64,000 bases of DNA from sequence record PX994957.1, one strand, 5' to 3'. Shown here one piece after another: positions 2,675-3,879 of this stretch. The notes below the pieces were generated by a model. That model saw only the letters and a list, made by a program, of their open reading frames with translations, was not told the origin of the DNA and made no database searches. The DNA comes from a phage. Positions within the stretch are counted from its first letter, which is position 1, and every line of letters begins with the position of its first letter. Position numbers and translations under genes: made by a program.

Positions 2675-3561
2675 TAAAAATCTCCTGAGGCAACTTGCCA
2701 GCATTCAACACCAATGCGGCGCCACATTTCAACTACTTGAGTTCGGTCATCAATAGCTAATTTCACATCAAAATGTGGTGCGATGTGTTTCCAGAAAATT
2801 TCTTCTTTAACTACATCATCTTTACGGGTATCGCCTTGTTCGCGTTGACATTGCATAACTAATGGAACACCAGCAATGTCCTCAACCCATTTACGGGTCA
2901 TACGATAATATTTTGTTGGGTCTTCTTCGGTTCCACTTTCACGGCCCGAAACGACTACGATGTAATATCCTTGCTTATCGTACATCTTAGCTAGTTCAAC
3001 GACCATTGGATTAATAATATCGGTATCACATTTTTCAAGGTCATAAGGACCACGACCATTCATTTTTGCTAATGTGCCATCAACATCAAAAATAACTGCT
3101 TTTGGTTTACCAGGAGTCCCTTTATATACCGGAAGTCCGAGATATTCCCGCATGCTTTTATACATTGAACGTAAAACATCAATTGGTACTGCTTTAGTTC
3201 CACGTTTTGAGTTACGTTTAACCAATTCAGTCCAAGGAACATCAAACACTTTATATTCAATTTGATGCCCAAGCTCTTTGGCAAACTCTTCCCAGACCTT
3301 ACGTCGTTCAGGATTTAGATTAGTATCTGAAACAATTACACCCTTCGTTACGTCTTGGCATAGAATCATGTTAGCAACATCATGCTGCATGTAAGTTACG
3401 ATGCCTTCTTTCTTTTTGGTATACTTGTACTCGTCACGTTCTTCATGACCCATGATGGATTGACGATAATCATCACGATTAATATTATAAAATCCAGGAT
3501 TTTTAGCAATAAATTCACGAGCCCAAGTACTCTTACCAGAACCAGGACAGCCAATAGTCAA
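2674..3561 (-). CDS. pseT: polynucleotide 5'-kinase/3'-phosphatase; open frame begins at a TTG because the ATG at 3577 or 3580 is out of frame (+1 base in an A6 run)
   Basis: P-loop GCPGSGKST and phosphatase DVDGT motifs; close match to recalled T4 PNK; ATGATGAAAAAAG at 3580..3568 is +1 relative to the PNK frame. Confidence 0.85.
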
Positions 3562-3576
3562 AATAATCTTTTTTCA

Positions 3577-3879
3577 TCATTTAATTCCTAAGAAAACTTC
3601 AAGAATACGAATATTATGCTCACGCCGTCCTTTGTACAATTCAGCTGTTGATTGATTCGCTGATTTACTCTGAACATTGGATGAAATAAATTTTATCATG
3701 TGATTTTTAAGCTGATACATATCAAGCCCACGAGCTTTCGCTTCTTTTCGCAGGGCTTTACCAGCATCATCTAAAGCTTTAGCATGTTCAATGTCTTCGC
3801 TAATGCTTGATACATTTTCACGGCATACGTCAATGTAACGGTCTGAGCATTCAATATAACGTTCTAACAGAGTTTTCAT
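3577..3879 (-). CDS. hypothetical early protein, 100 aa
   Basis: ORF track; stop overlaps pseT-region ATG (ATGA). Confidence 0.55.
   Translation of the reverse strand: MKTLLERYIECSDRYIDVCRENVSSISEDIEHAKALDDAGKALRKEAKARGLDMYQLKNHMIKFISSNVQSKSANQSTAELYKGRREHNIRILEVFLGIK

Follow-up and report, generated by a model that had tools for sequence, protein, structure and literature searches.

An out-of-frame start of the polynucleotide kinase gene pseT in a single T4-like phage record: sequence artefact or recent frameshift?

The pseT locus and its start region

The window analysed here, a stretch of 64,000 nucleotides of phage DNA (sequence record PX994957.1), belongs to a T4-like phage (Tequatrovirus) and shares about 97% identity with its closest relatives overall. 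On the minus strand, the genes of interest follow the order alc, pseT.3, pseT.2, pseT.1, a 100-aa ORF, pseT and cd.5. Apart from the 100-aa ORF this is the order found in T4, in which, however, pseT.1 lies directly upstream of pseT and pseT begins with a single ATG. The window phage shares with AR1, RB27 and G157lw a doubled start codon, ATGATG, and the extra ORF upstream of it, unlike T4. The elements of the locus, all read on the minus strand, are the following.

3577–3879, minus strand: upstream 100-aa ORF, intact, a homolog of AR1 ar1_230 / RB32ORF217c; the exact protein occurs on 15 contigs, and T4 is without it
3586–3589, minus strand: Shine-Dalgarno (SD) sequence AGGA, 5 nt 5' of ATG1; duplex with the 16S 3' end −4.2 kcal/mol
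3575–3580, minus strand: tandem start codons ATG-ATG of pseT, with ATG1 at 3580–3578 and ATG2 at 3577–3575
3569–3574, minus strand: A6 homopolymer (T6 on the plus strand), in which one A is the inserted base; A5 in relatives, where Lys-Lys is written AAA AAG
3533–3580, minus strand: dead-end ORF born of the extra A, with its stop TAA at 3535–3533 (read from the sequence)
3562–3573, minus strand: codons AAA AAG ATT ATT of the PNK frame, Lys2-Lys3-Ile4-Ile5 in T4 numbering, now behind two TGA stops and without a start codon
2674–3561, minus strand: body of pseT from TTG (Leu6) to TAA, 295 codons, intact according to the 1LTQ alignment and Pfam
3451–3453, minus strand: ATG, the next start of any kind (ATG/GTG/TTG) in the PNK frame, Met42 of T4 Pnkp; without SD, duplex +0.6 kcal/mol
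2477–2674, minus strand: cd.5 homolog, whose ATG (2674–2672) overlaps the pseT stop (TAATG); G157lw annotates a 65-aa cd.5

The 100-aa ORF is present between pseT.1 and pseT in phages of the AR1, RB27, RB32 and G157lw type. It gave no Pfam match, and the labels 'putative homing endonuclease' and 'AAA ATPase', carried by one relative each, are not supported here. The stop codon of this ORF (TGA, 3579–3577) overlaps ATG1 of pseT in the form ATGA, a layout that would be expected for translational coupling. Judging from the overlap at the other end of pseT, translation of cd.5 may also be coupled to that of pseT.

The ORF at 2674–3561 aligns to residues 6–301 of T4 Pnkp (PDB 1LTQ) with E = 6e-184, and since the alignment begins at residue 6, the TTG at 3561–3559 corresponds to Leu6 of the T4 protein. 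As in T4, the P-loop GCPGSGKS (9-GxxGxGKS-16 of T4 Pnkp) is present, the residues with essential roles in the T4 kinase, K15, S16, D35, R38, D85 and R126 (PMC2831316), are all conserved in the residue alignment to 1LTQ, and so is SKRG. The phosphatase motif is likewise conserved as DVDGT (D165/D167; FDVDGTL), in agreement with the DxDxT motif whose residue roles have been assigned in T4 Pnkp (PMC3592404). Pfam recognized AAA_33 with 83 bits and HAD_PNKP with 200.8 bits, the latter over the full profile. The predicted product of the pseT body has both the N-terminal P-loop kinase domain and the C-terminal DxDxT acylphosphatase domain expected of a T4-type Pnkp, domains that have each been crystallised separately (PDB 1LY1 for the kinase domain alone and 5UJ0 for the phosphatase domain alone). 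Compared with AR1, the pseT body carries 24 substitutions, only 4 of which change an amino acid, indicating that pseT has been under purifying selection right to the present and contains no second lesion. Removal of one A yields a 301-aa protein identical to one in phage vB_EcoM-G157lw, and the repaired protein read from the second Met has an exact match on a Logan contig of run SRR21357778.

At the beginning of pseT the minus strand reads GGAATTAAATGATGAAAAAAGATTATTTTG, with the A6 run at 3569–3574, and between 3591 and 3559 it reads TTAGGAATTAAATGATGAAAAAAGATTATTTTG. In AR1 and G157lw, pseT is annotated from ATG1 (3580–3578). The initial annotation identified the gene as pseT and held that six A residues instead of five put its conserved frame out of step with both ATG codons; alignments with AR1, G157lw, the Logan contig and T4, all four of which have A5, bear out the base count, and together with the 1LTQ match they support the identity of the gene and the uncoupling of its frame from the ATG and the SD. 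Unlike that of T4, the start in the window is thus +1 out of frame. The same annotation gave 14 codons for the frame that follows the ATGs, which is right for ATG2, whereas counted from ATG1 the dead-end ORF has 15 codons. Residues 3–301 of the PNK of phage AugustSocin match window positions 3573–2677 (tblastn), and the first start codon in this frame is, as had been proposed, the TTG at 3561–3559, which opens a 295-aa ORF (2674–3561). Its description as lacking a ribosome-binding site was also correct, because its anti-SD duplex amounts to −0.9 kcal/mol, compared with −4.2 kcal/mol for the AGGA that serves the ATGs.

As written, the locus contains no complete in-frame ORF of about 301 aa with a usable start, and to go by the sequence pseT would be a pseudogene or frameshift allele and not a working member of the T4-type Pnkp family. 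The sixth A also puts the upstream 100-aa ORF and the PNK body in one frame, separated by two TGA codons (3579–3577 and 3576–3574). The window has 71 six-base homopolymer runs and 438 runs of at least five, so the A6 run by itself is uninformative, and its position is the non-random part.

Distribution of the extra adenine

The distribution of the A6 form was examined with a 40-mer that has 17 bases on each side of the A run, such that any 28-base megablast seed must cross the run. Among 50,697 phage records, A6 was found in none and A5 in 481, of which 339 were identical to the A5 query. Megablast searches of complete E. coli genomes and plasmids did not return the A6 40-mer, and in IMG/VR, where the A5 form occurs on 19 contigs, the A6 form was likewise absent. 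Seven exact 21-mer matches to A6 in JGI metagenomes and GTDB genomes came from unrelated genes starting MKKDYFD, none of them pseT.

The 401-bp start region is 99.8% identical to that of AR1, wV7, RB27, G157lw and others, and in 60 of 60 records among the matches listed the match is one base shorter than the query. In the alignments with AR1, G157lw, the Logan contig and T4 the single gap falls in the A-run, the extra A being the sole difference from the relatives aligned in the start region. Over longer distances, G157lw differs from window positions 1500–5300 by one SNP in addition to the extra A, and Logan contig SRR21357778_55433 aligns to window positions 159–5283 with 0 mismatches and one gap, which is the extra A (the contig has A5). 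The initial annotation had named A5 in high-quality reads as the finding that would overturn a disrupted start, and this has been partly realized, in that an independent, read-derived contig otherwise identical over the segment shows A5. The contig probably comes from a close relative sharing this segment and not from the same isolate, since the RnlA, gp34 and gp37 proteins of the window are absent from a collection of 15 billion proteins, which also means that the collections searched do not include the genome of the window itself. When other contigs of SRR21357778 were sought with gp38 and gp52 of the window, only other samples were returned, the closest being SRR9321120 at 99.5%. A search for papers mentioning SRR21357778 gave none.

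Across the collections compared, the extra A is private to one sequence record. As the nearest DNA is identical bar one A and pseT is otherwise undamaged, the insertion must have happened extremely recently, if the phage carries it at all. Annotations of a 'split pseT' in vB-Eco-KMB22 and ECML-359 proved to be mislabelled upstream ORFs; pseT is intact in both phages, which therefore offer no precedent. A literature search for pseT frameshifts returned nothing relevant.

Expression of pseT from the allele as written

Taken literally, the record would have ribosomes start at the coupled, SD-served ATGs, make a 15-residue peptide and terminate in the 15-codon ORF, leaving the PNK body without a usable start. 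If A6 is real, PNK could then arise by three rare routes, namely slips of tRNA-Lys, starts at the TTG, and starts at Met42 that leave out the kinase active site. The Met42-initiated product would be without the P-loop, D35 and R38; the fragment Pnk(42–301) is reportedly an active phosphatase, a result attributed to Wang and Shuman in 2001. Exact-protein look-ups contained no record of the 295-aa TTG product or of the Met42-initiated product. Read-through that fuses the upstream ORF to PNK would be negligible because two tandem in-frame TGA stops must be read through.

It seems very unlikely that the allele is real and that translation begins at the TTG at 3561, yielding a shortened PNK without residues 1–5 and with the change L6M. 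TTG is a legal bacterial start codon, and the P-loop (G9–S16) and all catalytic residues lie downstream of it. Nevertheless, this TTG has no SD, as the duplex energies above indicate, and it is located inside the 15-codon ORF, which is read in another frame from strong starts 16–19 nt upstream, so that ribosomes would run over it. Its product keeps only 3 residues (M-T-I) of the strand leading into the P-loop, with a presumed effect on folding, and no relative starts at TTG. A single-sequence AlphaFold prediction (no alignment) of the 295-aa product reached a pLDDT of 35, too low to be informative on the shortened N-terminus.

The least probable of the readings considered is that A6 is a functional recoding site, at which programmed +1/−2 frameshifting or transcriptional slippage restores MMKK(K)IILTIG and keeps PNK at a low level. 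A +1 slip of the P-site tRNA-Lys from AAA (3571–3569) to AAG (3570–3568) would give the exact wild-type protein and a −2 slip one added Lys, and low-level compensatory frameshifting on homopolymer indels is known from the G-run of herpesvirus thymidine kinase (PMC5009743). Against this, the site is not conserved, as 0 of 481 relatives have A6. The classical A-AAA-AAG motif promotes −1 shifts, whereas the shift needed is +1, and the −1 frame meets a TGA after five codons. Moreover, AAA AAA is followed in the zero frame by GAU, which is no stop and is not known to be rare, and a ribosome would thus meet no codon that makes it pause for a +1 shift. Neither conservation of the site nor a slippery motif in the right phase with a stop or rare codon in the A site was found, and programmed recoding is not supported.

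As for slippage during transcription, T4 uses the RNA polymerase of E. coli. Slippage by this enzyme needs at least 7 T, and more for A (PMC6260861), and runs prone to slippage are selected against from a length of about 9 nt (PMC1088944). The run at the start of pseT, with six bases, is shorter than at least 7 T or about 9 A, and transcriptional slippage there should be negligible.

A leaky 'savior-indel' state, in which A6 is real and a trickle of authentic PNK is produced by +1 (or −2) tRNA-Lys slippage on AUG-AUG-AAA-AAA-G, is likewise highly improbable, less so than a functional recoding site and more so than a start at the TTG. If it were true, PNK would be tuned down, and the mRNA decay that it drives might become less costly without a complete loss of tRNA repair. 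The G7 'savior' indel of herpesvirus thymidine kinase (PMC5009743) is similar in that it affects a dispensable viral enzyme gene and could be partly bypassed by slippage. In that case, however, there is proof of both the phenotype and the frameshift product, and the indel was drug-selected, whereas the pseT A6 is known from sequence alone.

Three explanations had been offered initially for the displaced frame. Two of them, a sequencing error and a real frameshift, are retained here with a lean towards error, while unusual initiation is not supported, given a private allele and a TTG without SD.

Origin of the extra adenine

The quality of the remaining sequence was assessed mainly against AugustSocin (MZ501052.1), 107 of whose 113 proteins were matched in the window (tblastn). 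About 105 matched genes were compared; these are full length and in one frame except for a few that are diverged or replaced, with 0 internal stops. PNK is the only AugustSocin counterpart that loses its first residues, and pseT is the sole disrupted gene in this set. Similarly, in the list of gaps between the window and AugustSocin, the A in pseT is the only uncompensated frameshifting indel within a CDS; roughly 25 other indels of 1–2 bp are intergenic, and the remaining in-gene gaps lie in divergent stretches, where they offset each other within a few bases. The clean genes, in a window with so many runs of five or more, point to a high base-level quality and argue against a generally error-prone platform.

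Besides the extra A, the record holds two tandem duplications. In the first, 30815–31814 is repeated as 31815–32814 with 100% identity and a period of exactly 1000 bp, and the junction shows a 2-bp AA microhomology. It covers the 5' part of motA, a 49-aa ORF and the 3' part of gene 52, and creates a chimeric 241-aa ORF (31449–32174, minus strand) with the N-terminus of MotA and the C-terminus of gp52; intact motA (30539–31174) and gene 52 (32449–33777) are still present. None of the 50,697 phage records or 15 fetched relatives has this junction, and the MotA-gp52 chimera had no exact match in protein look-ups. In the second, positions 1–158 recur as 500–657, an exact 158-bp repeat at an offset of 499 bp that is cut by the window start; it would fit a tandem duplication of 499 bp in the region immediately following gene 31. 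No phage record contains its junction at 158/159, nor do G157lw and Logan contig SRR21357778_55433. Two exact tandem duplications of such round lengths are hard to credit as biology and suggest assembly or processing artefacts. In the same region, intergenic and upstream of motA, the A10 run at 31255–31264 and its duplicate at 32255–32264 constitute the longest homopolymer in the window; this run is long enough for polymerase slippage and is non-coding.

We consider it rather probable that the extra A is an artefact of sequencing, assembly or processing and not a biological signal, and infer that its source is the sequencing or an in silico step, not the phage. The sixth A would then be a single-base homopolymer insertion introduced by base-calling, consensus, assembly or processing. 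The real phage would most likely have A5, and its PNK would be translated normally from the ATG that the SD serves and that is coupled to the upstream ORF. Among consensus errors, one base too many in a homopolymer is the most frequent. The change observed is a single-base difference in homopolymer length, private to one record and contradicted by an independent, near-identical assembly. The uniqueness of the allele, the identity of the nearest DNA bar the A, and the conservation of pseT with all its catalytic residues support this reading. In addition, a SNP-free stretch that contains both the indel and one end of the 499-bp duplication fits an artefact better than divergence, and the private, round-length duplications of the record lower the trust that its private differences deserve.

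Several points weigh against an artefact. A homopolymer-prone platform would be expected to break more genes than one, and T4 can do without the gene that is hit on laboratory hosts (PMC3014915), as would be seen with a real mutation that is tolerated. A processing step that makes no single-base insertions could have produced the duplications, in which case they have no bearing on the extra A. Furthermore, the A5 contig, as noted, is probably that of a close relative and not of the same isolate.

The other surviving reading, which is possible and to which we give less credence than to an artefact, is that the extra A is a real and very recent +1 mutation by replication slippage of the Streisinger type, resulting in a null or very leaky pseT allele. 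PNK would then be made only via rare +1/−2 tRNA-Lys slippage on the A-run or rare SD-less starts, and the loss would be tolerated because PNK is needed only in the presence of the PrrC anticodon nuclease and otherwise merely fine-tunes the decay of RegB-cut mRNA. In favour of this reading, no other gene among about 105 is broken and the sequence is clean elsewhere, the absence of further damage in pseT agrees with a mutation of very recent date, and rnlA and stp, the partners of pseT in the tRNA-repair circuit, are intact in the window. A runs are classical sites of spontaneous frameshifts in T4, and A-run frameshifts and rII hot spots were reportedly described by Streisinger in 1966. The classical cases (reportedly in rII and lysozyme) resemble pseT in being +1 changes in a short A run, attributed to replication slippage, in genes non-essential on permissive hosts; unlike pseT, they were proven genetically, whereas the pseT change is known from one record and is indistinguishable from a consensus error.

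A further precedent is provided by ndd of AugustSocin, a well-sequenced relative, a dispensable early gene annotated in that phage as 'part 1' and 'part 2' and differing by one A in a short A-run from the intact gene of the window. The site, ACT[A]AAAAG at window position 34486, has A5 here and A4 in AugustSocin. It differs from pseT in that another gene is affected and that the putative shift lies mid-gene rather than at codons 3–4. In the window, ndd (nucleoid disruption protein) is one intact ORF at 34158–34613 on the minus strand.

Laboratory E. coli supports normal growth of T4 pseT/pnk mutants, and restriction is confined to prr+ strains; in these the phage peptide Stp activates the PrrC anticodon nuclease, tRNA-Lys is cleaved, and the damage is repaired by PNK together with RNA ligase 1 (PMC3014915). 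Set against a real mutation are the absence of the allele from every other sequence of the collections searched, the presence in this record of two private duplications of implausibly round length, and the zero substitutions relative to the nearest relative, which leave almost no time for a mutation to have arisen. About 480 isolates have kept pseT intact, a strong conservation which argues that such alleles are soon eliminated by natural selection.

Neither of the surviving readings is out of the ordinary, the one being an artefact and the other a textbook frameshift in a dispensable gene. Should the extra A be an artefact, curators would need to correct the record or mark pseT as frameshifted, and to check the two private duplications as well. 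Should A6 be real, the phage would be a natural pseT knock-out that grows normally on ordinary strains and fails on E. coli with the prr locus, the failure being predicted because stp and rnlA are intact; this is a small host-range prediction relevant to users of the phage. In that case cd.5 might also lose its translational coupling.

Other differences between the window and AugustSocin were observed elsewhere. Two homing-endonuclease-like genes of AugustSocin (22497–22958 in L023 and 22714–23355 in L022) have no counterpart in the window; one is located between genes 32 and 59, the other between the glucosyltransferase gene and gene 42 (compared with window positions 15520–15620 and 61227–61241). 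T-even phages commonly differ in this mosaic fashion in which mobile endonuclease genes they carry. Gene 37, which encodes the distal tail fibre (1108 aa), is about 80% identical to that of AugustSocin, in the region 23606–27758, and the adhesin gp38 (274 aa) is about 60% identical to its AugustSocin counterpart and occurs in exact form in five other assemblies.
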